Source: Candidatus Omnitrophota bacterium (lineage in GTDB: Bacteria > Omnitrophota > Gorgyraeia > Zapsychrales > Fredricksoniimonadaceae). Taken from it: a DNA stretch of 64,000 nucleotides. A model generated the notes under the pieces. It ran no database searches. It was given only the letters and a program-made list of their open reading frames with translations, and had not been told where the DNA came from. This document shows, in pieces, positions 23,601-58,266 of the stretch. Position 1 is the first letter of the stretch. Each line of letters starts with the position of its first letter. A program made the position numbers and the translations under genes. Location of the stretch: the NCBI GenBank assembly GCA_015233675.1, contig JADFXH010000004.1:136492-200491 (forward strand), in the 5' to 3' direction.

Positions 23601-24527
23601 CCTCAATTGGGCGAAATTCTTGCCTTCGTTGATTTCTTTTTCAAGGATTGGAATTACGATTTCACGGACGATTTGGGAGCCCAAAGCATTGATATCTTTG
23701 CTTGGCGTAAGGGGATTCCCCTGGAGTGCTTTCACATTCTTCCCTAGTTCGTTTGGCAACGTGCTTGGGGACACGCCCCTTTCGGGGGCATGTCCCCTGG
23801 TTGGCATTTGGTTTGTTTCTCCCTGGTTTTTGGACAATGCAAGATAATCCTGCTCCAGCATTACCTTTAACTTCGATTCAACCACATACGCCGTCCCTGC
23901 CCCGGCATTCTCATAAACAACGGCCTTTTCTGGAATGACCCAAACTTTATTAAATGTATTTACCGGGATATCCGTCGTTCCAAATTTCTTTGCGGCTTCT
24001 TGATACACCCGCTTCCAAAACTTCTTCCCAATATCATCTTCGGGATACATTAAACTGGCTGTGATTTGCTTGAGCATATAGTCTTCTGCCAACAAGTCCC
24101 TGCCCATTTCTGTCAGTCCAAATGACTCAGGCACTATACGATTTTTTTCATATGGACTTAAATTAACCCATAAGTCTTTTTCAGGAATAGTTAAGCTGGC
24201 AAGGAAATATTTGATTAAACGAGTGGCTTCGGTTCGTAATTCTTGGTCGTCGTTGGGTTTGTTCCTCTGGGTTGCTTTTACATTCAATGGTTCATTGGTT
24301 GGCGTATCCCCTTTGTCCAAAATAAAATCAAAACGGAAAGGATTATCGGGATGCACTTTAATGCCTTTAAGCATTGGAGGATCAAAGTGAGGACTTAAAT
24401 GTACCCTCGCACCAGGTGTAGGCAAAATAAAATCATTCGCTTGGACCATTGGTATAGGGCCAAACGTATTAAATAAAAATACCGTAAGTATACTTATAGA
24501 TATAGCTTTTCTTAGATTTAAATTCAT
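17625..24527 (-). CDS. Giant (~2,300 aa) exported modular protein. Order: signal peptide, conserved ~430-aa N-module, long unknown region, ATP-grasp-like domain, PPDK_N-like PEP/pyruvate-binding-type domain, conserved C-terminal tail.
   Basis: Single uninterrupted ORF. I prefer the start at 24527 (MNLNLRKAISISILTVFLFNTFGPIPMVQA), because the ORF-track start 24635 lies inside the upstream terminator hairpin. ATP-grasp-like: GVAKPNDGQCGYGVVFF...IIVQERV...WNVRVFV...MGVDVIV...YVIEVND. PPDK_N-like: LGEKPDKLIKLKQAGFNIAKFFVV...VIVRSAHPDEGRNHPFSGVFESF...VVIMEQVDIDVFGMFVT...VYVLQSRTIN. Confidence 0.9.
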   Translation of the reverse strand: MNLNLRKAISISILTVFLFNTFGPIPMVQANDFILPTPGARVHLSPHFDPPMLKGIKVHPDNPFRFDFILDKGDTPTNEPLNVKATQRNKPNDDQELRTEATRLIKYFLASLTIPEKDLWVNLSPYEKNRIVPESFGLTEMGRDLLAEDYMLKQITASLMYPEDDIGKKFWKRVYQEAAKKFGTTDIPVNTFNKVWVIPEKAVVYENAGAGTAYVVESKLKVMLEQDYLALSKNQGETNQMPTRGHAPERGVSPSTLPNELGKNVKALQGNPLTPSKDINALGSQIVREIVIPILEKEINEGKNFAQLRQVYNSLILAMWFKDKVRQSLFKKAYVDQNKTGGIDIKDKTQKDKIWAQYVQAFKKGAYNYIKEDYGPVTQQTVPRKYFSGGVDFAMGSHTTTFEGTSNLVLTTHDPDSLSEGISNRAIIIEANFTPFDKAMNSGVSPERHRIILEIYSFLTGMARAIKDEIEKQDPDAAFAQLDQWLEHNQGKTDEMLIQEGDIDSVLSLYDSFLKKLTSVSLVMSQEKQKISGQMDVAFDVALYDISDKLPKILDPLSLQSSTIKGLRHYSKKDKNFWASIQKNTKIVKFRLSGYRQMISDILDPASMDRTIDRRGFESQSLPEKIYTSFLLPYYDVITSVSADHAMLALKNQENFTSSIYWEKDSRYLLKALIVKRMSQVFLKEDDQMLFQNFVAHGELDKAKEMLGTRPSFYQDFQREPKTAVYPGGLDLRIFDLFPDLKEVHFINNMPFRVPFNIDHLSIVGMTKAQSSIKGQEAFKEMITGYLQQSEYHNYIETHTQLALVHPYSDETHSYLTDRYQIGLEPFIRANLEYRQASDIRITPQTGLAETYVIRFKDVLGVDRTIYFHQCDVFEADQYPQALQQALRPKKIDMFFIKAFTEDYNLFPEELRAGVKQGALFIKDSFNIGAMDQEEQDRFLKKWDLTKIGRLAGNNSPWGPMGYNFPDYEHMDHGLQVFRMPYGELSSTNSQPDYAMAGANEKYTDGKGHLHKHSFTLPAVPRTVPGKVTVMNETLSEEVFQALQAKGYLDSEGSVSSKFDPDTDYDRLNDYGIDEVGGQTLPETLGLDRKFSLIYADILMIMRDAVKKRDAQANVSFDRMPPQMAKSKEGEILNQVYWTVKVKNATGETPYVVGINHFYKGEEAFIDTNRHIAYEIFAAPLDRFKAAGFSKNDYKGSVVLTFDEQNVLNNDLFNFSIQDNRRLEYPWLYGIIRLRLSSQMSKPFDSRSLALHATIEDALKDEPYLVDETVFDVKAAEYQYNQQSQLRRFFYFANQSLREHGYESAKVMAQDDMLLTGKDVVNVGYIGDLREDELSLLQAASHFGNINLFSMNRAKRASYGTIVGAPLFMFKSGTPVVNKNPLDVPLDYVINLDARFDDLLGKSVVPEPGQPLEDNYIGLKDISMIELEKRGVTVPRWRAIIVSDRDYIRKGIFVQDMISRKRTSSKNVIRLNSKDRDLEFQLEKELKSFLLENKITAGVAKPNDGQCGYGVVFFNRLDLHRKIDEIYEMVRNGINIIVQERVTPPFVKRDNDTLDWNVRVFVTGNEKGRLAKVVRIDKEGKAINISQSAKPWLLEKVSQELNLTPKEYQDMEKAIDDESHKSFQAINQAMDDDKVKQKEQNAVDYMGVDVIVRHNAGKFSAYVIEVNDFHSGAAWDLDKALRDAPVELVSSEEASRRIGEASQGWLETIYRRALAYKNQGPHNADHAMISQEIIFPEDRHASIEGLGEKPDKLIKLKQAGFNIAKFFVVKSDGSGRLEMNDTLLRKAFNSLQKPVIVRSAHPDEGRNHPFSGVFESFDNISVLTQDEVPKKDISEEDAWFKLPESVESAYKDIVNNARDGYKSHKYRKDLGVTDFDPNKMDVVIMEQVDIDVFGMFVTSTHDPDRMLIHYEIRGEEGKASGGAIGYNKKTHALDENKLSEHLQSVLPEFGETAAKIESLFGVQQVELASSKKDGKVYVLQSRTINLGNPEDVPRLAQYKSLGLGEAYSYGGALEAIGYGNYRLPVLVIDNLENATHYRSSPEYISLQRELTEARTANDEQKVSELRSKERDLRKALKDKYQQELLAFQQSHPEYILVIKDAQDVLVDSFKMSAYQLINSLTTNAKVIIRGRNQTAIRHNDWDNIDLGRGITIIPPEIGSFMDHFQYTMNEGPFREGEDVAYKRDKILVQHPRSIGTGNYLNVLSNTDGVFVWYDDKMNQPLDKALIANSAQNGGIDLTRDKMNLQVHKERDGIGFSFDPVMLQQLQNVSGFVPVIINIQPMTDLRQFLGLSVQESNPTAR

Positions 24528-24617
24528 ATAATTAGTGAAAGTATACCCGACAATTGCATACTTTGCCACCTGAAGACCGTTTTGCCTTGAGAAGCGCGCC
24601 CTGCCAAGGCGTACAAT

Positions 24618-24650
24618 AAAAAAGCTTAGACACATTGTCTAAGCTTTTTT
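24618..24650 (-). terminator. Rho-independent (bidirectional-looking) terminator
   Basis: AAAAAAGCTTAGACA-CAT-TGTCTAAGCTTTTTT, a perfect 12-bp stem flanked by A and T runs. It lies downstream of the 24680..25045 gene. Confidence 0.8.
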
Positions 24651-31926: not shown

Positions 31927-32217
31927 TTATTTATTTTCGGAAGCAGCGTCAGCTTCAGCTATTTTGCTGTATTTCTCAGGATCATTATTAAAAGTGCTCT
32001 TACACCCCGGGCAACACAGATTATACACTTTGCCATTATATTCTAACTTAAAGGCTGGCCCCATCACGCCAACTTCCTTACCGGAAACCGGACAATGTTT
32101 ATTCCCAACCTCCACTGCCTGCACTGCTGCTTGTGATGTTGATGGAGCTTGCTGAGCAAAACCCATCCCCATTGTCAAAAAAATAACCCCCAGTGTTAAC
32201 GCAATAATTCTGTTCAT
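31927..32217 (-). CDS. Secreted YHS/TRASH-like metal-binding protein (paralog of 39767..40099)
   Basis: Signal peptide MNRIIALTLGVIFLTMGMGFAQQA. GNKHCPVSGKEV...YNGKVYNLCCPGCKSTFNNDPEKY. Start set at 32217 (AGGAGA SD). Confidence 0.7.
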   Translation of the reverse strand: MNRIIALTLGVIFLTMGMGFAQQAPSTSQAAVQAVEVGNKHCPVSGKEVGVMGPAFKLEYNGKVYNLCCPGCKSTFNNDPEKYSKIAEADAASENK

Positions 32218-32336
32218 ACACGTCTCCTGTTTGTTGATCCCTTCATTGGAACCAAATTTGTGCACCCATAAATAAAGACGTTATTGCTCTTAAAAGGTTA
32301 CGCTATTTCTTAAATTTTATTTAAGGGGAAGCAACT

Positions 32337-33143
32337 TTAGGTATGCTTTGAACAAGGGCAACCGGAAGACATGCTGCAGGCGCTATGTGTCTTTTGAATC
32401 CACTGATCACGCTCATTGCATGTACAGATAGCTTCATCCAATTTAGATTTTTGAGATTCAGGGGCCTTAGCTCGGAGGTCTTGAAGAACATCTTTTTGAT
32501 AAGCATTCAGAAATTTGAGCTTAGTAAGATAATTTCTCTGCTCGCTAACAGGCAGTTTAGCTATGGCATCCAACGAGGCCCCAGCCTCATTAAGCATGGC
32601 CTTAAGGGTCTGAATATCGATATGGCCATCTTTATTAAACTTATCCACCAGCTCTTTTGATCGTCTCTCGGAAAACACTATTTTCAGTTCCATCTGGCCT
32701 TCAGGATTAACGGTCAAAAAATATTTTACCTTTTCAGTTAGAAGCTTTACTAAATATAAAGGATCCCCTGGTACACTGCTGGCGGAAACATTGATCGTTC
32801 CCCAAGAAACAAAAACAATAGCCAGAACCAAGGCAAAACCCCGCGCCCAAGCGACTGAAGGAAAGAAAAACAAACGATTGAGCCTTGCCGAAAACGTGTT
32901 TTCCTTCTGCCTTTGTATTTCTTCTCCAACTTTGATCAGACAAGACATGACCTGATGCTCTGAAATCTCTATAGGGGGCATATCATTCAACTTCTGTGTC
33001 ACAGAAAGAAGTTCTTTTAACTCCTTGGCATGGTTAGGATACTGACGAATAACATCTTCCAAAGACATGCCCCTAAGCATCTTCTCACAGCACTCATTGA
33101 ATATGTCTTCTATCGGTTTATTATTCTTATCCATACAAAACAC
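32337..33143 (-). CDS. Single-pass membrane protein, DUF5667-type anti-sigma-like, with a Cys/His-rich C-terminal tail
   Basis: N-terminal cytoplasmic segment, a TM helix (FALVLAIVFVSWGTINV) and a PGDPLYLVKLLTEKVKYFL periplasmic region. The tail is EAICTCNERDQWIQKTHSACSMSSGCPCSKHT. Confidence 0.6.
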   Translation of the reverse strand: MFCMDKNNKPIEDIFNECCEKMLRGMSLEDVIRQYPNHAKELKELLSVTQKLNDMPPIEISEHQVMSCLIKVGEEIQRQKENTFSARLNRLFFFPSVAWARGFALVLAIVFVSWGTINVSASSVPGDPLYLVKLLTEKVKYFLTVNPEGQMELKIVFSERRSKELVDKFNKDGHIDIQTLKAMLNEAGASLDAIAKLPVSEQRNYLTKLKFLNAYQKDVLQDLRAKAPESQKSKLDEAICTCNERDQWIQKTHSACSMSSGCPCSKHT

Positions 33144-33286
33144 CCTTCTTCATCATTCCATTTCATTAAACACTGATTCGAGGTGCCGAAGGTAAAACAA
33201 AATTTGCTTCTCCATACATAAAGACGACCAACCCAGCTAAAAGTTACGACCTAAATGGAGTGCTCTCGGTATTGAGAGTACGCATG

Positions 33287-36200
33287 CTAATGCTCTTTTA
33301 ATTCCGGGATAGGAAACTTACTGACGTCTACTGTGCCCTTTTTCATCTCATAATTCCATTTCCAAATACTGTATATTGCTGGATAAACTAAGAGTTCCAT
33401 AACAAAACTACTAAAAATACCCCCGATCATAGGTGCTGCGATGCGTTTCATCACATCTGCCCCAGCTCCAATTGAGAACATAATAGGAACTAGCCCCATG
33501 AACATAGCGCTGACCGTCATGAGCTTTGGCCGAATACGTTTGACAGCCCCGTGAACAATAGCTTCTTCAAGATCCGACCTCGTTTTCATCTGCCCACTAC
33601 GGATAGTTTGATAATACGCAAGATCCAAGAAAAGCATCATAAAAACACCTGTTTCCGCATCAAGCCCCATGAGCGCAATCATTCCCACCCATACCGCAAT
33701 AGACATATTATAGCCCAGCATAAAAAGAAACCACACAGCGCCAACCAAAGAAAATGGCACTGCCAGCATGATAATCCCCGCCTTAACATGAGAACGGGTG
33801 TTCATATATAACAGCATAAAAATAAAAAACAACGTAATAGGAATAACAGTTTTCAAGCGCTCCCGGACACGCAGCATATTCTCATACTGCCCGCTCCAGA
33901 TAAGCGTATAGCCGGGTGTAGATTTAAGCTCCTTTTCAACCGCACGTTTAGCATCTTCCACAAAACTGCCCACATCACGGCCAGCAACATCCACATAAAC
34001 ATAACCAGAAAGCATACCATTCTCATTACGGATCATAGCTGGTCCTTGGACCAACTCTAACTTCGCAAGCTCTCCCAAGGGCACCTGTGCCCCCTGTGGT
34101 GTGGCAACAAGGACACGCTTGAGACTTGGTATATCATTACGTAACTCGCGCAGATAACGGACATTAACCGAATAGCGTTCCCGTCCCTCTATAGTCGTCG
34201 TCACGGGTTCGCCGCCAATCGCTGACATAATAACGTCTTCAACATCTCCTGCTGTCAATCCGTAACGAGCAAGAGCATCGGAATCAATGTCAAAATCAAG
34301 AAAATACCCGCCGGTCACACGTTCCGCATAAACACTGCGGGAGCCCGCCACCCCCTTAACAATTTTCTCAATATCTACACCTATACGTTCAATCTCCTTG
34401 TAATCCGCGCCTAATATCTTGATTCCAACCGGAGTCCTAACACCAGTTGAAAGCATATCAATACGGGCCTTGATCGGCATGGTCCAAGCATTAGACACGC
34501 CCGGAAATTTTACTCTCTCATCAAGCTCATTGATAATGTCCTGCCATGTAACGCTATCATTCCAAATAGGACGAACTAATCCCTGAAAAAATTCAGGCAT
34601 CCATGATGAATACCAGCGATGGACATGACGCCACTGGCTTTCCGGTTTAAGGACGATTGTTGTTTCCATCATGGAAAAAGGTGCTGGATCAGTCGCTGTT
34701 TCAGCACGTCCTGCCTTGCCGAATACCCGCTCAACCTCCGGAACAGTTCGGATAACCTTATCCATCTGTTGAAGAAGCTTTTCTGCTTCAGTGACAGAGA
34801 TCCCTGGCAAGGTTGTGGGCATATATAGAACCGTTCCCTCATTTAATGGAGGCATAAATTCCGACCCCAGCTTAAAATAAATTGGAATCACGGAGAGAAA
34901 AAGAAGTCCTGCACAAACCAATGTCGCAAAGCGGTGTTTGAGAACAAACCTGCAAGCTGGTTCGTAAACTTTAAACAAAACTTTACTGATGGGATGTTTC
35001 TCTTCCGGGTAATATTTACCGACGGTCAGCATATTTAATAAATTTGAAATCCATCGAGGACGGAAATTGACCTTATTGACGCGTACCAAAAGCACAAACA
35101 TGGCGGGAACAAGCGTAATTGCCAGAACTGCGGCAATAGCCATCGAAAAATTCTTGCTGAAAGCAAGCGGTCTAAAAAGCCTGCCTTCCTGATCAACAAG
35201 AGTAAAAACGGGTAAAAATGCCACCGCAATCACAAGAAGCGAAAAGAATACTGATGGACCGACTTCCTTCAAGGACGTTAATAGCACGTCATGGTAATCT
35301 TCACGACGGCCCTTGGCGTCCCATAACTGAATCTTCTTATAGGCATTTTCCACCATCACGATGGCCCCATCTACAAGGACGCCTATGGATATGGCAATAC
35401 CAGCTAACGACATGATATTTGATGTCAGCTTCAAAGCTAACATGGGGATAAAGGACAAAAGCACGGCCACAGGAATGGTGGCAATAGGCACACTCGCTGA
35501 TGGGAAATGCCATAGAAAGAAAATGATCACCAAACTTACAATAATCACCTCTTCAATGAGCTGATGTTTTAGAGTATCAATAGCTCGCAAAATTAAATCT
35601 GAACGGTCATACGTTGTTACGATTTCCACTCCCGGAGGAAGTGACGCTTTTACATCTTTTATCTTCTGCTTAACCCGATCAATCACTTGAAGGGCATTCT
35701 CTCCCGTACGCATGATGACGATGCCGCCAACGGTGTCCCCTTGGCCATCCAAATCAGCAACACCACGACGGATTTCTGGCCCAATGGTTACTTTTGCCAA
35801 ATTGCGCACTAGAACCGGACGCCCCTGAGTATCCGCGCCCACCACAATATTCTCGACATCTTTGGTTGATTTGATATAACCCCGGCCGCGAACCATGAAC
35901 TCAGTCCCAGCAAATTCGACCAGACGTCCGCCCACGTCGTTGTTACTCCTGCGTACAGCGTCAATGACTTTATTAATTGATATATTGTAGGCTTGCAAAG
36001 CTACCGGATCGACGTTGACTTGATATTGTTTCTGAAATCCTCCGACGGTTGCCACTTCTGAAACGCCAGGCACAGACTGTAACCAATAGCGTAAATACCA
36101 ATCTTGGAACGATCGAAGCTGCCCCAGATCATTTTTACCGCTCTTATCCACGAGTGCGTATTGATAGACCCAGCCGACAGAAGTTGCGTCAGGGCCTAAT

Positions 36201-36580
36201 TCTGTTCTAACCCCTTCAGGCAATCTTGAGATAACTTTATTAAGATATTCAAGCGTACGGCTTCTCGCCCAGTAAAGATCTGTTCCATCCTTAAAAATGA
36301 TATAAACATACGAATATCCAAAATCCGAGAAACCCCGGACGGCTTTGACATCAGGAGCCCCTAACATGGCCGTTACAATCGGATAAGTCACCTGATCTTC
36401 AATAATGTCCGGTGAGCGGTCCCATCTGGAATAAATAATAACTTGTGTATCTGAAAGGTCAGGAATAGCATCAAGCGGGATGTTGCGCACAGCCATGACA
36501 GCACCGACAATAGCCACTGCCGTCAAAATTAAGATAAGAAATTTATTCTTTGCCGAGAATTCAATAACCCTTTTAATCAT
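33287..36580 (-). CDS. Heavy-metal-efflux RND pump (CusA/CzcA family)
   Basis: 1097-aa ORF with the 12-TM RND architecture. It overlaps the adaptor gene stop by 4 nt. Confidence 0.95.
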   Translation of the reverse strand: MIKRVIEFSAKNKFLILILTAVAIVGAVMAVRNIPLDAIPDLSDTQVIIYSRWDRSPDIIEDQVTYPIVTAMLGAPDVKAVRGFSDFGYSYVYIIFKDGTDLYWARSRTLEYLNKVISRLPEGVRTELGPDATSVGWVYQYALVDKSGKNDLGQLRSFQDWYLRYWLQSVPGVSEVATVGGFQKQYQVNVDPVALQAYNISINKVIDAVRRSNNDVGGRLVEFAGTEFMVRGRGYIKSTKDVENIVVGADTQGRPVLVRNLAKVTIGPEIRRGVADLDGQGDTVGGIVIMRTGENALQVIDRVKQKIKDVKASLPPGVEIVTTYDRSDLILRAIDTLKHQLIEEVIIVSLVIIFFLWHFPSASVPIATIPVAVLLSFIPMLALKLTSNIMSLAGIAISIGVLVDGAIVMVENAYKKIQLWDAKGRREDYHDVLLTSLKEVGPSVFFSLLVIAVAFLPVFTLVDQEGRLFRPLAFSKNFSMAIAAVLAITLVPAMFVLLVRVNKVNFRPRWISNLLNMLTVGKYYPEEKHPISKVLFKVYEPACRFVLKHRFATLVCAGLLFLSVIPIYFKLGSEFMPPLNEGTVLYMPTTLPGISVTEAEKLLQQMDKVIRTVPEVERVFGKAGRAETATDPAPFSMMETTIVLKPESQWRHVHRWYSSWMPEFFQGLVRPIWNDSVTWQDIINELDERVKFPGVSNAWTMPIKARIDMLSTGVRTPVGIKILGADYKEIERIGVDIEKIVKGVAGSRSVYAERVTGGYFLDFDIDSDALARYGLTAGDVEDVIMSAIGGEPVTTTIEGRERYSVNVRYLRELRNDIPSLKRVLVATPQGAQVPLGELAKLELVQGPAMIRNENGMLSGYVYVDVAGRDVGSFVEDAKRAVEKELKSTPGYTLIWSGQYENMLRVRERLKTVIPITLFFIFMLLYMNTRSHVKAGIIMLAVPFSLVGAVWFLFMLGYNMSIAVWVGMIALMGLDAETGVFMMLFLDLAYYQTIRSGQMKTRSDLEEAIVHGAVKRIRPKLMTVSAMFMGLVPIMFSIGAGADVMKRIAAPMIGGIFSSFVMELLVYPAIYSIWKWNYEMKKGTVDVSKFPIPELKEH

Positions 36581-37749
36581 TTACCGGCCCCCTCAAGACG
36601 GCTTTCAGCATCAATCAAGAAATTACCGCTGACAACAACCTTGTCCCCTTCTTGAAGACCGCTCAGGACTTCATAATAACCTTTAGCTTTCGAACCTAAA
36701 CTCACCTCTTTGACCTCAAAAACATCATCGTGTACGACATGGACGATTTGACGAGTCCCCGAATCTAACACCGCATCTTCCTGAACTGCCAGCTTTTCTC
36801 CTAAATCAACATCTATTCTGGCTGAGCCAAATATTTCACCACGAAGGATTTTCTCCTTATCATCGACTTTCACCCTGACCCGTACAGTCCGCGATTGTGA
36901 ATCCAAAACTGGAGCTATACCAGAAACTGCTCCCTGGAACACTTTTCCCTGGAAAGATGGAGTTTCAAACGACACTTTTTGTCCCGGGCGAACTGTAGAA
37001 GCCTCATCAGCATAAATAGCCGCATAAACCCATGCTGTTGAGGATTTTCCAGGATAATACAAACTGTCATCTGCCTTACCTGCCTTGCCTAATTCATCAA
37101 CTTCAGCATCAGTCATCCCCTGAAGATAGAGTTTTCGACGACTTGCCTCTAAAAGAGACTTGGATTGCTCCTTCAGAGAGGATTCAGAACTGTTTTCAGC
37201 AGCCGTAGATGACTTTAATGCTTCAATAAACCCCGTCTGGGCTACGTATAAATCAGGATCGAACGCAACTCTTCCTGATGCGCGAATTTCAAGGACAAGG
37301 TCACGCTTCTGAACAAGCCCTGTCTTAACTCCAATAAGTTGCTGTTGGTTAGGATTCACATGAACACCGGACATTTCATCAGCTCCCGAATTTTCATTTT
37401 CATAAACAGGAATATAATCCATCCCCATTGAATCTTTCATAAAGGTGGGCGATGTTACTGAAGGGTCCATTGGGTTTCGGTAATAAATAATTTTTTTGTC
37501 TTTCTTGGACTGGGAATCCGTCGCAGGCACCCCTATGGCATGGTCTTCACTCTTAACAAGTTTCATCCCGCATATAGGGCACTCACCTGGTTTATCTGAA
37601 ACATAATCCGGATGCATCGGGCAATGATATTTAGCCTTCATTAATTGAGAGCTTTGTGACGATTGAGAGGTGCAGTGATAAATATAAAATATGCCTGCTG
37701 CCACAGCCATAATTGATAACAAAATTATTATCCAAATATTCTTTTTCAT
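36577..37749 (-). CDS. RND periplasmic adaptor (CusB/CzcB family) with an N-terminal Cys-rich metal-binding motif
   Basis: YHCPMHPDYVSDKPGECPICGMKLV followed by a membrane-fusion-protein barrel/lipoyl pattern. Confidence 0.9.
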   Translation of the reverse strand: MKKNIWIIILLSIMAVAAGIFYIYHCTSQSSQSSQLMKAKYHCPMHPDYVSDKPGECPICGMKLVKSEDHAIGVPATDSQSKKDKKIIYYRNPMDPSVTSPTFMKDSMGMDYIPVYENENSGADEMSGVHVNPNQQQLIGVKTGLVQKRDLVLEIRASGRVAFDPDLYVAQTGFIEALKSSTAAENSSESSLKEQSKSLLEASRRKLYLQGMTDAEVDELGKAGKADDSLYYPGKSSTAWVYAAIYADEASTVRPGQKVSFETPSFQGKVFQGAVSGIAPVLDSQSRTVRVRVKVDDKEKILRGEIFGSARIDVDLGEKLAVQEDAVLDSGTRQIVHVVHDDVFEVKEVSLGSKAKGYYEVLSGLQEGDKVVVSGNFLIDAESRLEGAGK

Positions 37750-39008
37750 TTTATCTCTCCCTCGTAATCCATATCACCCCCGACCACACGTTCCAAATCA
37801 GCTTTTGAAACCGCTAATGTGGCTAATGCATCTGCATATTCCATTTGATAATCTCGGTATGCCCTAAATGCTCCAATATATTCGCTAAATTCACCTGTAC
37901 CTGATTCATAAGCGACACGCGCTGTTGTTACCGCGGACTTTATACGCGGTAAAATGCCATCTTCATAAAGCCGGACAATATCGCCAGAAGCTTTTACTTT
38001 TGCCAATGCGCTTCGTCCTTCAAAAATCACGGTATTTTCTTCAGCTTGTAAATCCGCTTGTGCAGCCTTAAACCCTGCGCGGGCTTCTGCAATTTCCGGG
38101 CCCTGTTTCCCCCAAAACCATAGTGGTATGGTCAAGCCGACCGCTCCCATCCATTGTCCCTTGCTAAAATTTCCACCCTGCTCTTCATGTTTGTACTCCA
38201 ACCTAATATCCGGCAACAGTTCTTGCTTGCTTAAAGAATACTCTGTCTTGGCACGATCCATCATGTTCCTAAAAGACTTTAACTCCGGACGATCTTGTTT
38301 TATCCTTTCAATAATATTCTCTTCGGAAGCATCTTCCTGTATTGAATCCATGCGAATATCAATATCTCCCAGATCCTTAGGCGTCATATTAAGAAGGGAT
38401 GCCAGTAAACTTTGGGCAATGATCCGGTCTTGCTCAAACTGTTTTTGGGCTACCATGACCTTATCCTGCTCTGCACCAGCCCGTAAGCTATCTACCTGTG
38501 AACCGCGGCCTGAAGAATACTTAGTCTCTGCCGCTTTTGACATCTGGCTGGCCAAATCAAGACTGTCTTTAGTTAAGGCCAACTTGCGATTAGCCACAAA
38601 CATTGACGCATAAGCTTCTTTAACTTCTTTAATAACACGTTGCTGTGTTTCCTTATATTCCTGCGCGAAAGAATCCATCTCTTGCCTGGCAGCTTTCCTT
38701 TTTAAAAAAAGCTTGGTCGGAAAAGGGATCTCCTGTGAAACTGAAAGGGTTTTCATCGGCTTACCATTGGAAGATGGAAATATCTTATCATATCCATACT
38801 CAACCATGGGATCAGGAAGATTGCGAAAAAAAGCAACACGAGCACGGGCCGCTTCATAGCGGGCACTAGCGGCTAAAATTTGAGGATTTTGAGATAAGGC
38901 TTGCTGAATCAATTCATGGAGCCCCATATGTTTACCTTCTTGGGCAAACATAACTGTCGGTGCAATCAACAACATAAATAATAGCAGCACTGTTACACGC
39001 ATTCTCAA
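37746..39008 (-). CDS. Outer-membrane efflux factor (TolC/CzcC/CusC family)
   Basis: 420 aa with a signal peptide and two tandem OEP-like repeats. Translationally coupled to the adaptor gene. Confidence 0.85.
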   Translation of the reverse strand: MRMRVTVLLLFMLLIAPTVMFAQEGKHMGLHELIQQALSQNPQILAASARYEAARARVAFFRNLPDPMVEYGYDKIFPSSNGKPMKTLSVSQEIPFPTKLFLKRKAARQEMDSFAQEYKETQQRVIKEVKEAYASMFVANRKLALTKDSLDLASQMSKAAETKYSSGRGSQVDSLRAGAEQDKVMVAQKQFEQDRIIAQSLLASLLNMTPKDLGDIDIRMDSIQEDASEENIIERIKQDRPELKSFRNMMDRAKTEYSLSKQELLPDIRLEYKHEEQGGNFSKGQWMGAVGLTIPLWFWGKQGPEIAEARAGFKAAQADLQAEENTVIFEGRSALAKVKASGDIVRLYEDGILPRIKSAVTTARVAYESGTGEFSEYIGAFRAYRDYQMEYADALATLAVSKADLERVVGGDMDYEGEIK

Positions 39009-39086
39009 TCCCCTTATAAAGTTCCCCTATTTCTAAAGACGCTCACTAACAAAGACGAAAGGAATGAAAGAAAGTTACGATGTTTT

Positions 39087-39638
39087 TTAAGCCCCAATAT
39101 CCTTTTTCAAGTATTGTTTTAACCCAGCTACCGCACGAAACTGCAGAATTTTCACAGCCCCCACCGAATTATGCATGATTTGAGCTGTTTCCTCTAAAGT
39201 ATGACCGTTTAAAAATCTCAATGAAATTACTTCTGCTTGGCTCTCGGTTAAAACTGTAAGCATATGTTTTATTTCACCAGCCATAAATCCTTCTCTGTGA
39301 TCTTCTGTTGATACCGTAATACTGTCATCCTCTATTTCATCAAGCGAGGAGGATTTCTGGCGATCCATCTTACGGTAATAATCGATAAGCAGATTACGAG
39401 CTATCTTAAACAACCATGCAGGGAAATTGCCAGTTTGATTCTTAATGGAGCCCACCATCCGTACAAAAACTTCGCTGGTTAAATCCTCTGCATCCTCTCG
39501 GTTACGTGCCCGATATGACAGGAATCGCAACACAGTCGGATAGTAATGTTTAACCAACTGGCCCATAGCCCCCTCATCCATTTGACGGGCCTGTCCTAAA
39601 ATATCATCCAAATTATCTGGATTTTTAAATTCATCCAT
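39087..39638 (-). CDS. ECF (group 4) sigma-70 factor
   Basis: Region 2 (DLTSEVFVRMV...WLFKIARNLLIDYYRK) and region 4 (VISLRFLNGHTLEETAQIMHNSVGAVKILQFRA). Confidence 0.9.
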   Translation of the reverse strand: MDEFKNPDNLDDILGQARQMDEGAMGQLVKHYYPTVLRFLSYRARNREDAEDLTSEVFVRMVGSIKNQTGNFPAWLFKIARNLLIDYYRKMDRQKSSSLDEIEDDSITVSTEDHREGFMAGEIKHMLTVLTESQAEVISLRFLNGHTLEETAQIMHNSVGAVKILQFRAVAGLKQYLKKDIGA

Positions 39639-39766
39639 GACTTAAGAAACCTTTCTACTAACTGACTCCGACGCCATATTCATAGACCATACTCTCACCT
39701 ATAAAAATGCACAAACTTCGGATGTAGTAGAAACCCCATTAAGGAACTGTCCATGAGCTCTCCTGT

Positions 39767-40099
39767 CTATTTATTGCCGCTAACCTCTTTATCAGCTATG
39801 GCACTGTATTTTTCAGGATTCTTTTTAAAATCCTTTATACACATGGGACAGCAAAGACTGTAAATTTTTCCTTTATACATAATTTTAACCGGTCCTCCCA
39901 TTGCCCCTTTCTCACCAGGAGCAAGAACTTTCTCGCCACTTACAGGACAAATTTTATTCCCTGTCTCTACTGCGTTGGATGTCTGTACGATTGAAGTTAC
40001 TACTTGAACATCTTCTGTCTTTTGCGCTTCTTGGGCTAAAACGAAACCGCTGGATAAACTTAAAACAGCTAATGCTAAAATTAACGATTTAGTATTCAT
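39767..40099 (-). CDS. Secreted YHS/TRASH-like metal-binding protein (paralog of 31927..32217)
   Basis: Signal peptide MNTKSLILALAVLSLSSGFVLAQEA. GNKICPVSGEKV...YKGKIYSLCCPMCIKDFKKNPEKY. Confidence 0.7.
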   Translation of the reverse strand: MNTKSLILALAVLSLSSGFVLAQEAQKTEDVQVVTSIVQTSNAVETGNKICPVSGEKVLAPGEKGAMGGPVKIMYKGKIYSLCCPMCIKDFKKNPEKYSAIADKEVSGNK

Positions 40100-40232: not shown

Positions 40233-40721
40233 TCAGAAGAGCTGCCTAATGGAGGCCCCAAATAAACAAAATAAACCGAAGTTCGCAATGCAGATTTTGT
40301 GGCTTAACCAACTTTCAATTCTTTTTTTAATCTCTTCCCTTATGGCCCTGGTCTTGATAACCTTATCTTCCCAAGCCCCTTCAAACTTTGAGGGGTCAGT
40401 AAAACTCCAGTGAAACCGCTTGGCAATTCCTGGGAATATCGGACAACGCTCTGCACTGGTTTCATCACACACCGTAATAACATAGTTATAAAGTTTACCG
40501 CTCTTGACGCAATCAAGGACCGACCGTGTCTGTTTATGGGAAACATCAATCCCTATTTCCTTTAGGACCTCAATCACGACTGGATTCAACTTCCCTGGCT
40601 CAATCCCGGCACTTTCGGACTCAAACCTATCACCAGCCAATTTCCGCAACAATTCCTCTGCCATCTGACTACGTGCTGAATTATGAATACAAACAAACAG
40701 AACTTTTTCCTTTGCCATCAA
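40233..40721 (-). CDS. arsC: Arsenate reductase, LMW-PTPase (thioredoxin-coupled) type
   Basis: KVLFVCIHNSARSQMAEELL P-loop and downstream Cys residues (VCDETSAERCP). The ORF carries ~25 extra hydrophobic C-terminal residues of doubtful significance. Confidence 0.9.
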   Translation of the reverse strand: MMAKEKVLFVCIHNSARSQMAEELLRKLAGDRFESESAGIEPGKLNPVVIEVLKEIGIDVSHKQTRSVLDCVKSGKLYNYVITVCDETSAERCPIFPGIAKRFHWSFTDPSKFEGAWEDKVIKTRAIREEIKKRIESWLSHKICIANFGLFCLFGASIRQLF

Positions 40722-40733
40722 TCACCACCCTTA

Positions 40734-41777
40734 TTAACAACACTGTCTAATGAACCACGTATTCTTCTCTAAAAACTTGGCCACATTGACCAAGCCGATC
40801 ATAACAGGAACTTCGATTAGCGGACCAATGACCGCGGCAAATGCCACCCCCGAATTGATACCAAAGACGGCCACAGCAACAGCAATAGCTAATTCGAAAT
40901 TATTGCTCGCTGCTGTAAACGAAAGCGTAACTGTTTTACCGTAATCAGCTCCCATTTTTCGACTTATATAAAACGAAACGATGAACATGATCACAAAATA
41001 TATCAGAAGCGGAATCGCAATCCGGACAACATCCAAAGGAATCTTTACAATATATTCACCTTTAAGGGAAAACATAACGAAGATCGTAAAAAGAAGAGCG
41101 ATAAGCGTAATGGGACTAATACGAGGGATGAAAACCTTCTCATACCATTCTCTTCCCCTTAGACGCAATAGGACAAGCCTAGAAATCATCCCCGCTAGAA
41201 AAGGAATGCCTAAATAAATAAAAACACTTTTAGCTATCTGAGCAATCGTAACATTCACAACAACACCTTTGAGGCCAAACCAATCGGGCAAAATTGTAAT
41301 AAAAACCCACGCATACACAGAAAAAAACAATACCTGAAAAATGGCGTTAAAAGCTACCAGACCTGCACAATACTCGGCATCCCCATCAGCTAGATCGTTC
41401 CAAACAATGACCATAGCAATACACCGGGCCAATCCTATCAAGATCAATCCGATCATATATTCCGGAAATCCTCTTAAGAATACGATGCCCAAAGCAAACA
41501 TTAATATGGGCCCGATGATCCAATTCTGAACAAGAGATAGTGTCAAAATTTTATAATCCTTAAAAACATCCCCCAGTTCTTCATATTTCACCTTCGCCAA
41601 GGGGGGATACATCATAAGAATTAAACCAAAAGCTATCGGCACATTGGTTGTACCTGACCGGAACTGATTCCAGAATCCCACGATCCCCGGAAAGAAAAAC
41701 CCAGTACCAACGCCTACAATCATTGCGAGAAATATCCATACTGTTAAATATCGGTCTAAGAAAGCAAGTTTCTTCAT
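40734..41777 (-). CDS. acr3: ACR3-family arsenite efflux permease
   Basis: [30 protein letters not shown]... 347 aa and about 10 TM helices. Confidence 0.95.
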
Positions 41778-42082
41778 TTATTTATTCCTTTTGTTTGAAT
41801 ACGGCAACACCCACCTTCTATTTTTATAGCTTTAATATTCACAAGCCCATCAGCAACTTTCTCATGTGCTATAGAGAGTATTCTGGTAAAAGTAGGCCGT
41901 GAAACTTTCATCAGCTTAGCAGCCTGTGCATGGGTCAATCCCTCTAAATCTGCTAATCTTATAGCTTCAAACTCATCAATCGTTAACCCTATAATATCCC
42001 CTTCTCCCAGTTTCTTAAACTTGGGACGGAAACACCTCTCTCCCGGCAAACACCTTATCCATCTTGTTTTTTTAGGCCTCAT
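41774..42082 (-). CDS. DUF134 (UPF0251) DNA-binding protein, first gene of the ars operon
   Basis: [59 protein letters not shown], then a vicinal Cys pair (GGCCRIQ). Overlaps the acr3 start by 4 nt. Confidence 0.8.
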
Positions 42083-43387: not shown

Positions 43388-44527
43388 TTATAAATCCTTC
43401 AATAAATAACTTGTACTACGCCCACCAGCATCGTCCTTGATCAGGATCTTCTTTTCGATCAATTCAAGAATATCCCGCAATGCAGTATCATGAGAACATT
43501 TGGCGATCTTGGCCCATTTTGAAGATGTAAGCTTCCCTTCAAAACCTTCAAACAACTTATTAATCACCATTATCTGGCGCTTATTAAAAGAGCCTTCAGG
43601 ATAAGTTTCCCAAAAACGTGCTTTCTTAAAAACTCCTGCCAATGTCTTTTCAGTCGTATCTATGGCCCTATCCAGACAGGCTAAAAACCACTTAATCCAG
43701 ATAGTTATATCCATGTCCTCATTCTTTTGAATTTTTTCAAGCACGTCATAATAGGCATTCCTTTCCTGACGTATCTGAACAGACATGCTATAAAAACGTT
43801 GTGCGCTGCCATCGGCACGTGCAAGTTGCATATCCGTGATGGCCCGCGCAATACGCCCGTTACCATCATCAAAAGGGTGAATTGTCACAAACCACAAATG
43901 AGCAATGGCCGCTTTAAGCACAAGATCAATCCCAGCGTCTTGATTAAACCAAGCCATGAAATTCTTCATCTCATTATTAAGACGTGATGCTTGAGGGGCT
44001 TCAAAATGAACTTTTTGACGTCCTATTGGCCCGGAAATAACTTGCATAGGGCCATGTTTATCATCACGCCAGCTGCCGACAACGATTTTTTGCATACCGC
44101 TTCGACCAGTTGGAAAAAGACTCGCATGCCAACCGAATAAACGATCTTTGGTCAAAGATTTCTTAAATTTCTGTGTCGCATCCAACATCATCTCAACCAC
44201 CCCATCGACATTACGATCAGAAGAAACAAGCCCAGCAATGTCCATCCCCAATTTTCTAGCGATAGATGAGCGCACCTGAGCAGGATTAAGAATTTCTCCT
44301 TCAATCTCGCTACTCTTTAAAACATCAAGAGTAAGTGTTTGTAGGATAGCTTCCGAACGCAAAGGAAATCCTAAGGATTCCATGCGACCGATCAGCCGCC
44401 CCTGCCGATTGCGCACCTCTCCCAGCAAAGACATGATCTGTTGATCATCCCAAATGAACTTTGGCCAATTATTTAATTGATGTATATAATGCATTATTCT
44501 ACGCACTCCTTGCGTAGAATATACCAC
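43388..44527 (-). CDS. Fic-family protein (N-terminal Fic_N-like region, C-terminal winged-helix-like region)
   Basis: Active site HPFDDGNGRIARA and inhibitory-helix motif SSEIEG. Confidence 0.9.
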   Translation of the reverse strand: MVYSTQGVRRIMHYIHQLNNWPKFIWDDQQIMSLLGEVRNRQGRLIGRMESLGFPLRSEAILQTLTLDVLKSSEIEGEILNPAQVRSSIARKLGMDIAGLVSSDRNVDGVVEMMLDATQKFKKSLTKDRLFGWHASLFPTGRSGMQKIVVGSWRDDKHGPMQVISGPIGRQKVHFEAPQASRLNNEMKNFMAWFNQDAGIDLVLKAAIAHLWFVTIHPFDDGNGRIARAITDMQLARADGSAQRFYSMSVQIRQERNAYYDVLEKIQKNEDMDITIWIKWFLACLDRAIDTTEKTLAGVFKKARFWETYPEGSFNKRQIMVINKLFEGFEGKLTSSKWAKIAKCSHDTALRDILELIEKKILIKDDAGGRSTSYLLKDL

Positions 44528-44779: not shown

Positions 44780-47700
44780 TTAACTTGCTGTTAAAGAGTT
44801 TTCTTGAACTTTTAACCCAAGGAATTGCTTTAAGTTCGTCATCGGCCGGATATTGATAATCACCGGCACAACGCCTGAAAAATCACCAGACCTAAACTGC
44901 TCGAGTATGGCCGGGCCAAACTTCATCTCAATGGCCTGCCCATCCCGGAAAACATCCAAGCCCATGTTGCGGGCATTCATGTCAATACCACCCCGTGTCT
45001 TAGAGATCATAGCTTCATCGTATTCAGAACGGCTTTGTGGAAGTGCCCGTAAAGGCGAGTGAGTTGGAGCTTGGGACGGAGCCAACAAAGAATGACGGGA
45101 GCCATCTTGATAACGGCTTAAAACTGCCTTAAGTTTATCGAAATCAAAATCGCAATATTTTTTTTGACTCAACCGTTGCATTTCGGGCATAGTGCGAATC
45201 GAATGAATTCTAAGCTCGCTTTCATCAGAAATATAAAATTCAAAACCCATAGGGCTCTCGGATATGCCTCCATCAGGGCCATTATCATCATAAACTATAT
45301 GGAGCGTCTCCACCGCGTGCGGCACGAGTCCCAGCATTGGATTTGCATCGAGATACCCATACAAATTAAACGCAACACGTTTTTGGTACCACTCGCTATC
45401 ATTAGGTTCAATGCCCATAAAAAGCTCGAAACTATCGTATCCACGTGCGTGTGCGCGAGGACTTCGATCTTTAAAAATAGCTTCCAACTCGTTGTGAACA
45501 TTTAAAATATCCTCATGGAATTTATGAACTTTATCAACAATCCCATCGAGGGACTCCTGATCCAAATTGGCAAATTCTTTTTGCATGTTTGCGACAAACC
45601 TTGCAGTTCTATCCGCATTCCATTTGATTTTTCCCAATTCCTGGAAGACATACGCCAAAACATCCGTATAAAGAGGATCATGTGCCCCTAACACCTCGGT
45701 GTGCAGTCTTCCATTTTCCTCCAATATCCCGAAACGATTAAGAATCAAACGGGTCCCATCTTTCCTGTTGACTCGCAGAACATCCTTTTGCGGTAAATAA
45801 GCAACTGATTCCGGAAAAATGTCCCCTGATTCAGCGGATGAATAGATGATAGCTCCGGATGCATTGAGAATCAGGCACCTCTGGTGATAGGGATCATTCA
45901 CTAAGGCAAACTGATAAAGCGTGGGAGCTTCTCCATATTTTTGTTTCCGGCCAAAACCAGTAATATCTGCGGTGGCTGCGTATTGTTTCAAGACCAAAAA
46001 AAGATCCCTGCGCATGGTTTCTTCCTCATTTCTTCCCTGTTTCGATACCCCACCACCTAATTTACCGGGAATCAGACTTCTAATCACTGTTTCTCCGTTC
46101 AAGCTAAAAGTCCTCAAGACATTGTCACGCATTTGAGAAATTCGTCCATTCTTTTTATCATACTGAATTTCGTCACCGGGCCGCCAGCCAAACAAATCTT
46201 CATTTGTAGATTTATCTTTTTTTAGTATTAATTTAATGGAATATTGTACAAGCGTGTCTGATGGCACCTCTGTTTTCATTTGGTCATCCCATTTATAGCT
46301 CCTGAGATAGCTTAATTTAAACTCAATTACGAATTTATTTTCTCCCTTCTGATTGGATGAAATAAAACGCCGCTCCTCGGTTCGAATAGGAATGCCGGGG
46401 CCACCTCGGCCATTAGGTTTATATTGAGCACTGAACCCAGGCAAAAAAACATCATATTCGCTAAAACCACCTAATCTTTCTTGATCCCGAATTATTTTTT
46501 CTTTAAATTTATTTTCTTTAAGCCATGTCTCAAATTCCGATATGGACTTTAATACCGCATCTACATTCAAATCGTGCAAATCATTCGTCTCATGTGTCCG
46601 GACAAAAAAATCCCCGTCTTCCGGTCCTTTGGGGCCCTTGGCTTCTCTATTAAAATCATTGTGCAAATCAGATTCCCCTTCTTCAACGAAGTTTGTCGTT
46701 CCTTCATTCTTCAGCGGGCGTTTTTGAGGGCCTACCATCTTTTTGGCTTGAACGATGAAATGTCCAAAAACATGCAAATCTTCGGATGAATCTTTAAGCA
46801 TTCCCAGGGCAGTGTCCGCCACATGCGCATAGCCATATTCCAAACTCTGGGAAGGAATATAATTCTGATAGTGTTGGATGCCCACCCTCATCCGGGTAAA
46901 GTTTCGTCTTGCCTGTTCATCATTACCCAAAACGGTCTTTTTTAATTCAATAATGTCAGCTAATTGGGGCTCATCCGGTAAAGCCGCAAGAGATTCCAAA
47001 ATATTCAGGATTGTTTTCCTGGCTTCAAGTAATTGAGCAGCGCCTTCATTAGCACTAGTTAACAGAGACTGAATAAAATTGATTACCGACTTTACGTTGT
47101 CAGGAATAATTTGGCCAATGGTGTCTTTGTCGATACTCCCAAAAGTGTCGATCAGATTGATATTCTTGGCAGCCATTTCCTTAATTTGCGCGCTTAATCC
47201 ACCATAATAATCAAAGTGGTCACGAATGTACTCAACCGCAAGTAAAAAAGGAGCTCCTTTCTTGATTCGAGGAGCCAACCTTTGATTATTATAAAATGAC
47301 AGGGAAGAGCGAAACAGTTTAACAAGTTGATGCGCTTCTGAAGCTCCTTTTTTTCCCGCTTCTTCTAATTGAGCCAAAATTTTATCCTGATCCAGAGAAG
47401 GTGTTTGCAAAAAGCGGTTGATTTCAATGACAAGGACTGCCATTTCCTCAGCCAACTGTTTGTATTCGTTGGGCACAACGGATAAAGGAATCTTCACTTC
47501 TTCACGTATACGCTGGCCTTCTGTATAAAGACTTCCCAGAACATTGCCATCCATTATCATTGCCGAGTCTAGTTTCTCGGTCGTATCGTAACGCTGAATA
47601 TTTGCCGAGACCATGGCCATATCACCATCAGTAGACATCGCCAAATCCTCGCCAGGCTCTAATTTTGATTCCCGCTTAATAAGTTCACTTGGTTTTCGAT

Positions 47701-58262: not shown

Positions 58263-58266
58263 TATA

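Follow-up and report, generated by a model that had tools for sequence, protein, structure and literature searches.

A predicted ECF sigma factor and DUF5667 anti-sigma pair at a Cus-type efflux cluster of an Omnitrophota bacterium

How is a heavy-metal efflux pump controlled when a gene for an extracytoplasmic function (ECF) sigma factor lies at one end of the pump genes and its possible anti-sigma gene lies at the other? This arrangement occurs in a stretch of 64,000 nucleotides (the window) from contig JADFXH010000004.1 of a Candidatus Omnitrophota bacterium (assembly GCA_015233675.1, positions 136,492 to 200,491). A sequence-only reading had described a minus-strand cluster of seven genes: a YHS-like gene, the ECF sigma gene, three 'czc' genes for a heavy-metal efflux, resistance-nodulation-division (HME-RND) pump, a DUF5667-type membrane protein gene, and a second YHS-like gene. 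We confirmed all seven open reading frames (ORFs) with their order and domains (Table 1). The whole window holds one ECF sigma gene, one DUF5667 gene (its product is 100% identical to NCBI HQL12_04615), and two YHS genes, here called YHS-A and YHS-B. We propose, with a probability of about 0.72, that these genes form a cluster for Cu(I)/Ag(I) resistance in which a CusCBA-type pump is controlled by an ECF sigma factor that has a DUF5667 anti-sigma factor, through a regulon of three promoters.

The case for a sigma/anti-sigma pair begins with gene order in relatives, whose loci we label L001, L002, and so on (L012 to L016 are from Dehalococcoidia). Orthologs of the DUF5667 protein have 59-100% identity, form 17 clusters, and are all found on Omnitrophota-like contigs. 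The split order, YHS-A-[DUF2231]-sigma-outer-membrane factor (OEP)-membrane fusion protein (MFP)-RND-DUF5667, is present in the window and in L001, L002, L005, L007, and L010. At other loci the sigma and DUF5667 genes are adjacent and the pump genes follow, with a gap between the two of 85 nucleotides in L003 and L004, 470 nucleotides in L009, and 1.3 kb in L011. A 4-nucleotide overlap of the two genes is seen in L017, a relative of 48% identity.

A profile search detected at least 798 more distant DUF5667 relatives. In all five Dehalococcoidia loci an ECF sigma gene, whose product is 32% identical to the window sigma, lies 5' of the DUF5667 gene, with a gap of 2-3 nucleotides in four of them and 147 nucleotides in L012. 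These pairs have dnaX, recR, and recO (downstream) as neighbours, and neither a pump nor a YHS gene. A gene for a membrane protein with a zinc-ribbon/MamF_MmsF domain is located upstream of the pair in L014 to L016. Scanning metagenomes with the 17-sequence alignment gave 80 further diverse loci, of which 68 had enough upstream sequence (at least 450 nucleotides) to be tested; the sigma gene is within 60 nucleotides of the DUF5667 gene in 56 of these 68 and within 1.5 kb in 63.

The sequence-only reading had taken the DUF5667 protein for an anti-sigma encoded at a distance from its sigma, an idea strengthened by relatives of several phyla in which the DUF5667 gene is directly 3' of, or overlaps, the sigma gene. 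The split layout itself holds for the window but is one of several arrangements, each separated unit having its own copy of the promoter described below. The same reading had allowed for a different anti-sigma partner, and we found no other candidate beside the sigma gene in the window. A DUF2231 membrane protein was considered for this role and rejected, being absent from the window (where only a remnant of the gene persists), from L001, and from all Dehalococcoidia pairs.

The architecture of the DUF5667 protein points in the same direction. It scores 32.1 bits against Pfam PF18915 (gathering threshold 27), and 120 of 120 diverse relatives also match. Family proteins have one hydrophobic segment. 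Among the 150 listed representatives of 50%-identity clusters (of 171 hits), almost every protein is 250-300 residues long, with the DUF5667 domain beginning around residue 105-125. In the 15 residues flanking the segment, Lys and Arg together average 3.6 on the N-terminal side and 0.8 on the C-terminal side, with an excess on the N-terminal side in 90 of 99 proteins (Wilcoxon p 1e-16). This bias, together with the single transmembrane (TM) helix, places the N-terminal domain of about 90 residues in the cytoplasm and the DUF5667 bundle and tail in the periplasm. An N-in/C-out topology with a periplasmic Cys tail is thus predicted. The N-terminal motif (I/L)E.ILD.C(L/I)E...G...E..L..YPE is kept family-wide. 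An AlphaFold2 (AF2) model made from 120 sequences (pLDDT 72) contains an all-helical periplasmic bundle at residues 120-255 (pLDDT 75-97). Because of the adjacency to sigma genes across phyla and this N-in, single-TM architecture, we read the DUF5667 protein as a putative anti-sigma factor. In gene order and protein architecture alike, the two look as an ECF sigma and its anti-sigma typically do, and the protein is very probably the cognate anti-sigma of the window sigma, to which it would bind physically.

The window sigma is clearly an ECF (group IV) member, with Pfam scores of 62.6 bits for Sigma70_r2, 42.1 for Sigma70_r4, and 42.3 for Sigma70_ECF, and 88.7 bits for TIGR02937 against a cutoff of 42.9. 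Its best NCBIfam match is the BldN equivalog TIGR02952 (ECF121), yet the score of 129.8 bits falls short of the 206.45-bit cutoff. Similarly, the closest solved relative is sigma-BldN (6dxo_A, E 3e-22), and CnrH (4cxf) is matched only at E 1.2e-4. By these scores BldN is the nearest relative of the sigma, which lies outside the BldN family. The cluster contains no small ORF of the CnrY or CnrX kind, such as the CnrH type (ECF291) has, and the 183-residue protein has no cysteine and no extension, unlike the CorE-like factors with their Cys-rich C-terminal extension and CxC motif.

A regulon for this sigma is suggested by the sequence CGTAAC-N16-CGTC, which matches the 64-kb window exactly three times compared with 0.01 matches expected from shuffles; all three are intergenic and on the minus strand. 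Copy 1 begins 8 nucleotides past the sigma stop codon and about 50 nucleotides 5' of the OEP start, and its position is kept in L001, L003, L005, L007, L009, and L011. Copy 2 is kept in L007 (9926), L008 (1666), and L011 (9927), and copy 3 in L007 (10823) and L008 (2576). The motif is found at equivalent places in every Omnitrophota relative, always right after the sigma gene and also 5' of the DUF5667 gene wherever these two genes lie apart. The three Omnitrophota pump loci that have no sigma gene (L018 to L020) lack the motif. Among distant loci with short-type DUF5667 members (anti-sigma 27-46% identical), 18 of 30 have the motif at the start of the sigma gene, as against none of the 26 long-type loci; the background rate is at most 0.018 per 300-nucleotide window. 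It also lies immediately 5' of OEP-MFP-RND genes in L037 and L050, 5' of a divergent OEP-YHS-MFP operon in L041, and 5' of a YHS gene in L023. A search for GTAAC-N15-17-CGT beside the sigma or DUF5667 genes gave nothing at any of the five Dehalococcoidia loci, and this branch probably recognises a different promoter.

What is conserved in the motif are the two boxes, a T-rich stretch past the -35 box, and an A-rich stretch upstream; the rest of the spacer is variable. AAC at -35 and CGT at -10 are reportedly the typical signature of ECF promoters. It is very improbable, in our view, that the three sites are instead a repeated intergenic element or the binding sites of another regulator. A leader with a hairpin that follows one copy is common to several loci and could suggest a duplicated cassette. 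However, a spacer that varies freely outside the boxes and the T-rich and A-rich stretches, boxes with the ECF signature, and a motif that tracks the sigma subgroup and is missing at sigma-less pumps all argue for promoters. Read as promoters, the motif copies, first recognised in the present analysis, define the predicted sigma regulon. In several lineages this sigma subgroup, its predicted promoter, and its DUF5667 partner turn up again together with metal-efflux genes.

The leader after copy 3 is about 45 nucleotides long and includes an 8-bp hairpin, UUGAUUCC...GGGAUCAA. It recurs at five relatives' loci (Table 1) in front of differing genes: YHS-B in the window and small secreted ORFs in the relatives. 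The hairpin exhibits wobble changes only and no compensatory pairs, and Rfam has no match in the leader region.

The sigma gene itself is probably transcribed from a sigma-70-like site (Table 1) or by read-through from the arsenic genes upstream. In the closest relative, L007, a motif copy precedes an operon of a 127-residue protein gene, YHS-A, DUF2231, and sigma. The window has lost the 127-residue protein gene, and DUF2231 is reduced to a remnant of 20 codons (MDSSLMGFLLHPKFVHFYR, then a stop) that resembles the start of the intact L007 protein, MDNSLVGFLYPLHPKLVHFPIAL. In L003, L005, L007, and L011 the DUF2231 gene is intact and sits between YHS-A and sigma, and the short ORF of the window looks like the leftover of a deletion.

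What does the pump export? The sequence-only reading had named it 'czc', after divalent-cation pumps, a name that the sequence does not bear out. The RND protein belongs to the CusA/CzcA family TIGR00914 (1078.4 bits against a cutoff of 701.45) and scores 1011 bits to Escherichia coli CusA as against 494 bits to the divalent-cation pump ZneA. The residues M573/M623/M672, which form the Cu(I)/Ag(I) triad in the periplasmic cleft of CusA, are all Met in the alignment (vlyMptt, pfsMmett, ridMlstg). Czc-type pumps have an Asp at the 'DFG' position of TM4; here TM4 is AISIGVLVDGAIVMVEN, with no Asp at that position.

The adaptor is consistent with this assignment. The MFP matches Pfam HlyD_D23 (88.8 bits) and carries an N-terminal heavy-metal-binding domain (HMBD), YHCPMHP...CPICGM (51 bits), both above cutoffs. 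CusB is its best NCBIfam match, but its scores are below the curated CusB model NF007303 (116.9 versus 390 bits) and the RND adaptor model TIGR01730 (89 versus 94.9). By these scores it is a periplasmic adaptor outside the curated CusB equivalog. The OEP is 90% identical to its L007 ortholog; its listed start is TTG 39008, and ATG 39002 is the likelier one. No protein of the cluster matches CusF in Pfam or NCBIfam. CopA-type ATPases with YHS and HMBD domains adjoin the cluster in L001, L003, and L019. In its sequence the pump is thus of the CusCBA, monovalent Cu/Ag type, and the Met triad, the missing TM4 Asp, the HMBD, and the nearby CopA-type ATPases make Cu(I)/Ag(I) the likely substrates.

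If the DUF5667 protein controls such a pump, its C-terminal tail could be the input. The earlier reading quoted a Cys/His-rich tail that might sense metal directly, and suggested predicting which side of the membrane it faces. The quoted sequence, CTCNERDQWIQKTHSACSMSSGCPCSKHT, is exact, the tail is predicted to be periplasmic, and two core cysteines are invariant in close relatives. Its cysteines are C237, C239, C253, C259, and C261. All 17 orthologs keep C239 and C261; C237 and C259 are kept almost throughout, whereas C253 varies. In the AF2 model C237 and C239 sit on the last helix and the CPC end is disordered. More broadly, 81 of the 120 diverse representatives have at least two Cys within the last 45 residues, and the family pattern AI..C..R..W(M)..., followed by a C-terminal CP(M)W, aligns to C239, W245, and C259-P-C261 of the window protein.

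Metal-efflux genes (RND, MFP, OEP, YHS, or CopA) lie within about 5 kb of 6 of 14 Cys-tailed members and 3 of 29 others (Fisher p=0.04, for loci that are not phylogenetically independent). The three tail-less loci with metal genes all encode short-type proteins. In one of these, L036, the protein has a Met-rich tail, MRGMMMGPHMDGSGRGMGGMRMMGPP, in place of the Cys motif, and at this locus the promoter motif occurs three times, with a P-type ATPase fragment downstream. Dehalococcoidia and long-type members have neither a Cys tail nor a metal context.

We suggest direct metal sensing by the tail only tentatively, at somewhat worse than even odds. The pattern fits a metal-related input, and a structural disulfide or a redox switch would explain it just as well; the motif may also be a sensor element of a general kind. 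There is a substantial chance, although well short of even, that the equivalents of C239 and C261 form a structural disulfide or a thiol/redox switch and that the signal arrives through another protein, for which the candidate routes are a secreted YHS-A acting as CnrX does for CnrY, and regulated proteolysis. The motif CxxRxxW...CP(M)W is indeed family-wide, no metal gene is encoded within 5 kb at 8 of the 14 Cys-tailed loci, C253 varies and C237 and C259 are not invariant even among close relatives, and YHS-A is syntenic with the sigma gene in six Omnitrophota loci. On the other hand, metal-efflux genes are enriched near Cys-tailed and short-type members, with the dependence between loci noted above; L036, linked to a pump or ATPase, has in its place a stretch rich in Met, as is typical of periplasmic Cu(I) sites; and the Dehalococcoidia members, in housekeeping contexts, lack the tail.

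Several observations weigh against the proposed copper/silver module as a whole. The N-terminal domain of the DUF5667 protein matches no known anti-sigma class (class I, zf-HC2/RskA/RseA-like; class II, CnrY/NepR; class III, RsbN). With the N-terminal 88 residues in isolation and with 120 diverse relatives, Pfam returned no anti-sigma family at E<=1. A sequence-profile search of the PDB with the DUF5667 family returned nothing significant, and in Foldseek searches of the PDB neither of two AF2 models had a match below E 0.02. In the AF2 model the confidence of this domain is only about 55-78. The literature search found no paper that mentions DUF5667 and no source that calls a member of the family an anti-sigma. 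The CxxRxxW...CP tail motif, as said, extends to loci with no metal gene nearby. The metal specificity is read solely from CusA residues, the promoters are sequence predictions, and no motif copy lies 5' of the sigma gene in the window, which is uncommon for ECF systems. The top Foldseek matches, designed helical proteins and the soluble domains of CorA/ZntB (TM-score 0.25-0.37), were dismissed as meaningless.

The dissimilarity to class I, II, and III domains and the lack of any source naming a DUF5667 member as an anti-sigma would also fit a protein of another kind, namely a co-regulated envelope protein, for instance a periplasmic accessory or stress protein, that is merely the most conserved target of the sigma, which would then be under some other regulation. 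In the window its gene has a sigma-type promoter of its own, as a target gene would. We regard this alternative as unlikely, since translationally coupled sigma-DUF5667 pairs occur in at least three phyla, some at loci without another plausible target, and since the conserved cytoplasmic domain (ILDxCLE..G..E..L..YPE) has the size of an anti-sigma domain and is followed by a single TM helix. No rival lies beside the sigma gene in the window, and DUF2231 is lacking in the window, in L001, and in Dehalococcoidia. Moreover, an anti-sigma gene under its own sigma is normal, as with rsbN (PMC6101532).

Returning to the DUF5667 protein as an anti-sigma, we consider the two small proteins that had been described as secreted paralogs bracketing the cluster. 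They are indeed paralogs, 41% identical (E 7e-25), with a common CPVSG...LCCP.C motif. In both, hydropathy and inspection point to a Sec-type signal sequence: a positive n-region, a hydrophobic core of about 15-18 residues, and an AxA-like site (VLA|QE, GFA|QQ). A signal-like N-terminus is present in 24 of 25 aligned family members. YHS-B scores above the Pfam YHS (PF04945) gathering threshold of 30.3 bits (37.7 bits), YHS-A below it (28.2 bits). The family has 154 matches, mostly in Omnitrophota and named only 'YHS/TRASH domain-containing', with the consensus VEVGNK.CPVSG...YNGK.YNLCCP.C..F...PEKYSKIAE and conserved C42, C68, C69, and C72 (C-x25-CC-x2-C).

The bracketing is real in the window, although it is not conserved as such: relatives keep YHS-A with sigma and YHS-B with the pump. 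YHS-A orthologs lie 5' of the sigma gene in L001, L003, L005, L007, and L011. The suggested check on co-occurrence with HME-RND operons gave YHS-B homologs directly 3' of the RND gene at five relatives' loci (L003, L009, L018, L019, and L020). In L018 to L020, the three contexts sampled, an MFP(HMBD)-RND pair is followed after 0-15 nucleotides by the YHS gene, and no sigma gene is nearby. The bracket of the window combines a regulatory module (YHS-A-sigma) with a pump module (OEP-MFP-RND-YHS-B), and the anti-sigma gene with its own promoter lies between the RND gene and YHS-B. We do not claim clean sigma-linked and pump-linked clades, which a neighbour-joining tree of the short domain bears out only in part; the sigma-linked copy of L003 clusters with the pump-linked P0172.

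TRASH domains of archaeal CopM and CopR bind or sense Cu/Ag (PMC7830388), and our literature search found nothing on periplasmic YHS proteins and copper. From its position and domain, it is a reasonable inference that YHS-B handles periplasmic Cu/Ag in the manner of CusF. YHS-A might be a sensor partner like CnrX.

In the model that we favour, the ECF sigma would replace the two-component system that usually controls a CusCBA-type pump. The cytoplasmic domain of the DUF5667 protein, of about 90 residues, would tether the sigma at the membrane, with the periplasmic helical bundle and Cys-rich tail as the input side. A periplasmic signal, most likely soft-metal stress, would release the sigma, and the freed sigma would transcribe cusC-cusB-cusA from promoter copy 1. 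It would also transcribe the anti-sigma gene, whose sigma-type promoter implies negative feedback and a reset, and YHS-B, a four-Cys TRASH-type protein in the operon position of E. coli CusF that probably handles periplasmic Cu/Ag. The sigma gene and YHS-A would presumably depend on a housekeeping-type promoter or on read-through from the upstream arsenic genes. Of this scheme, the analysis shows the identities of the genes, the metal-site residues of CusA, the synteny of sigma and DUF5667 genes across phyla, the topology, and the enrichment and conservation of the promoter motif; we infer that the anti-sigma binds the sigma, what the signal is, that the tail binds metal, and what the YHS proteins do.

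The logic of the cluster resembles that of cnrYXH-cnrCBA in Cupriavidus metallidurans with different parts, and its principle is not new. Both, the window cluster by prediction, have an HME-RND operon governed by an ECF sigma with a membrane anti-sigma, sigma-dependent promoters 5' of regulator and pump genes, and a periplasmic metal signal; for ECF291 a full metal-efflux operon in the neighbourhood has been described (PMC7826278). However, the window sigma is distant from CnrH and nearer BldN (E 1.2e-4 versus 3e-22), the 265-residue DUF5667 protein contrasts with CnrY, a small class II protein of two helices, the window cluster has no CnrX homolog, the pump is of the Cus type (monovalent Cu/Ag) rather than a Ni/Co pump, and the pump genes separate anti-sigma from sigma. 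With E. coli cusCFBA/CusRS the cluster shares a CusA ortholog with the Met triad, an OEP, an MFP, and a gene for a small, here putatively secreted, accessory protein. Unlike that system, it has neither CusRS nor CusF, is predicted to be regulated by an ECF sigma, has a four-Cys YHS/TRASH accessory protein instead of the Met/Trp beta-barrel of CusF, and has an N-terminal HMBD on its MFP.

Sigma-BldN and RsbN of Streptomyces (ECF121, class III) offer another parallel. Among solved structures and among curated families, BldN comes closest to the sigma, and RsbN is likewise a single-pass protein with a cytoplasmic N-terminal domain of about 100 residues and a large extracytoplasmic domain. The gene rsbN, encoding the anti-sigma of BldN, is a direct target of its own sigma (PMC6101532). 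In contrast, the window sigma reaches 130 of the 206 bits required by the equivalog, DUF5667 has no sequence similarity to RsbN, RsbN homologs are reported from Streptomyces only, and the BldN regulon is developmental (chaplins, rodlins). CorE/CorE2 of Myxococcus xanthus are also copper-linked ECF sigmas with a Cys-rich sequence proposed as metal sensor (PMC10141476). There, however, the Cys-rich extension is on the sigma itself, in the cytoplasm, with no anti-sigma, whereas here the Cys tail is on the periplasmic end of the putative anti-sigma. The only ECF sigma that a 2023 review relates to copper is CorE, which senses metal by its own C-terminal extension (PMC10141476). Finally, the YHS proteins belong to the same family of small Cys-based metal-binding domains as archaeal CopM (chaperone), CopR/CopT (regulator), and the YHS domains of CopA, and archaeal TRASH proteins are genetically linked to copper export (PMC7830388). 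The archaeal proteins are cytoplasmic, whereas those of the window have putative signal peptides and the four-Cys pattern.

Table 1. Features of the cluster, its surroundings, and related loci. Positions are those of the window unless a locus is named.
Feature	Position	Strand	Description
YHS-A	39767-40099	-	110 aa; small, putatively secreted YHS/TRASH-like; directly 5' of sigma gene
DUF2231 membrane-protein gene remnant	39695-39754	-	20 codons
ECF (group IV) sigma	39087-39638	-	183 aa; Sigma70_r2 + r4, Sigma70_ECF
Predicted ECF-type promoter copy 1	39079-39054	-	CGTAAC-N16-CGTC
OEP (CusC-like outer-membrane factor)	37746-39008	-	Pfam OEP 161 bits
MFP (CusB-like periplasmic adaptor)	36577-37749	-	HlyD_D23 + N-terminal HMBD
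CusA-type HME-RND permease	33287-36580	-	1097 aa; TIGR00914
Predicted ECF-type promoter copy 2	33248-33223	-	89 nt 5' of DUF5667 gene
DUF5667 protein, putative anti-sigma	32337-33134	-	265 aa; Pfam DUF5667; predicted regions: 1-~90 cytoplasmic helical, ~93-116 TM, ~120-235 periplasmic DUF5667 bundle, 237-265 Cys/His tail
Predicted ECF-type promoter copy 3	32302-32277	-	60 nt 5' of YHS-B
Leader	32218-32262	-	follows promoter copy 3
Leader hairpin	32234-32255	-	promoter copy 3 to YHS-B interval; weak support
YHS-B	31927-32217	-	96 aa; small, putatively secreted YHS/TRASH; pump-associated paralog
Sigma-70-like site	40177-40149		candidate start of sigma gene transcription
arsC (thioredoxin type), acr3, DUF134 putative DNA-binding protein gene	40233-42082	-	immediately 5' of YHS-A
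Fic/DUF4172 protein	43388-44527		
Large serine recombinase	51717-53642	-	Resolvase, Recombinase, Zn-ribbon domains; ~12 kb from cluster
Similar large serine recombinase	L003 3826-5196		~3 kb 5' of cluster in L003/L004
Giant ORF	17625-24635	-	2336 aa
Giant ORF	44780-48736	-	1318 aa
596-aa protein	58198-59988	+	sigma-70 region 2 + region 3 in N-terminal third
Leader in relatives	L001 3929-3973; L007 10862-10906; L008 2611-2655; L009 5203-5247; L011 8723-8767		
Short-type DUF5667 relative	L036 1900-2727		Met-rich C-terminal tail
PLYL.THSLRL proteins	L007 2296-2679; L009 4040-4435 and 6555-6962; L011 6596-7168; L001 10892-11296; L003 10738-11142; L018 3016-3405; L020 3137-3526		127-135 aa, Cys/His-rich
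Small secreted ORFs behind promoter	L001 3977-4249; L003 11226-11516; L009 5188-5523; L011 8771-9816 (3 copies); L017 1456-1746		~90-110 aa

The arsenic genes next door indicate that the copper cluster belongs to a larger metal(loid)-resistance stretch; at their place L007 has the Cys/His-rich gene of 127 residues with its own sigma-type promoter. A MATE transporter gene lies downstream of the cluster. The serine recombinases of the window and L003, together with the Fic/DUF4172 protein, hint that the region could belong to a mobile island. Neither giant ORF has a Pfam match at E<=1e-5. The 596-residue protein, encoded by one of the few large plus-strand ORFs, has a long unassigned C-terminal part.

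Two groups of small proteins recur in the relatives and are absent from the window. The first consists of Cys/His-rich secreted or membrane proteins near pumps that end in PLYL.THSLRL; their sole Pfam hint is a weak one to DUF2946 (E 0.04), and the L007 member has a sigma-type promoter 5' of its gene. The second consists of small secreted proteins encoded behind a sigma-type promoter, one of which has a weak match to DUF5666 (E 8e-4), a domain that some long-type members, such as P0351, carry fused to DUF5667.

A wider generalisation is more doubtful, and we hold it to be considerably less probable than the proposal for this locus. DUF5667 proteins may be a widespread, unrecognised class of ECF anti-sigma factors with a cytoplasmic sigma-binding domain of their own, distributed over Omnitrophota, Dehalococcoidia, WOR-3, and many metagenomic lineages. 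Short-type tails would then sense soft metals, one protein doing the job of both CnrY and CnrX by means of the bundle and the Cys motif or its Met-rich variants; the regulon would be that of the CGTAAC-N16-CGTC promoters, and the secreted YHS proteins would be a Cys-based counterpart of CusF in anaerobes.

If the proposed pairing is true, it would give an anti-sigma function to DUF5667, a family with hundreds of members, none of them named as regulators, and the most useful by-product of this analysis is the case for reading DUF5667, throughout the family, as the ectodomain of anti-sigma factors that go with a defined promoter motif. The sigma and anti-sigma, the motif, and the regulon together would make a full, testable ECF module from phyla without genetic systems, and the promoter/sigma/anti-sigma set is a potential orthogonal, possibly metal-responsive switch. 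For the organisms themselves, Cus-type copper/silver pumps are predicted here to come under ECF control as an alternative to CusRS, and secreted TRASH/YHS proteins may be periplasmic copper-handling partners of RND pumps that replace CusF.

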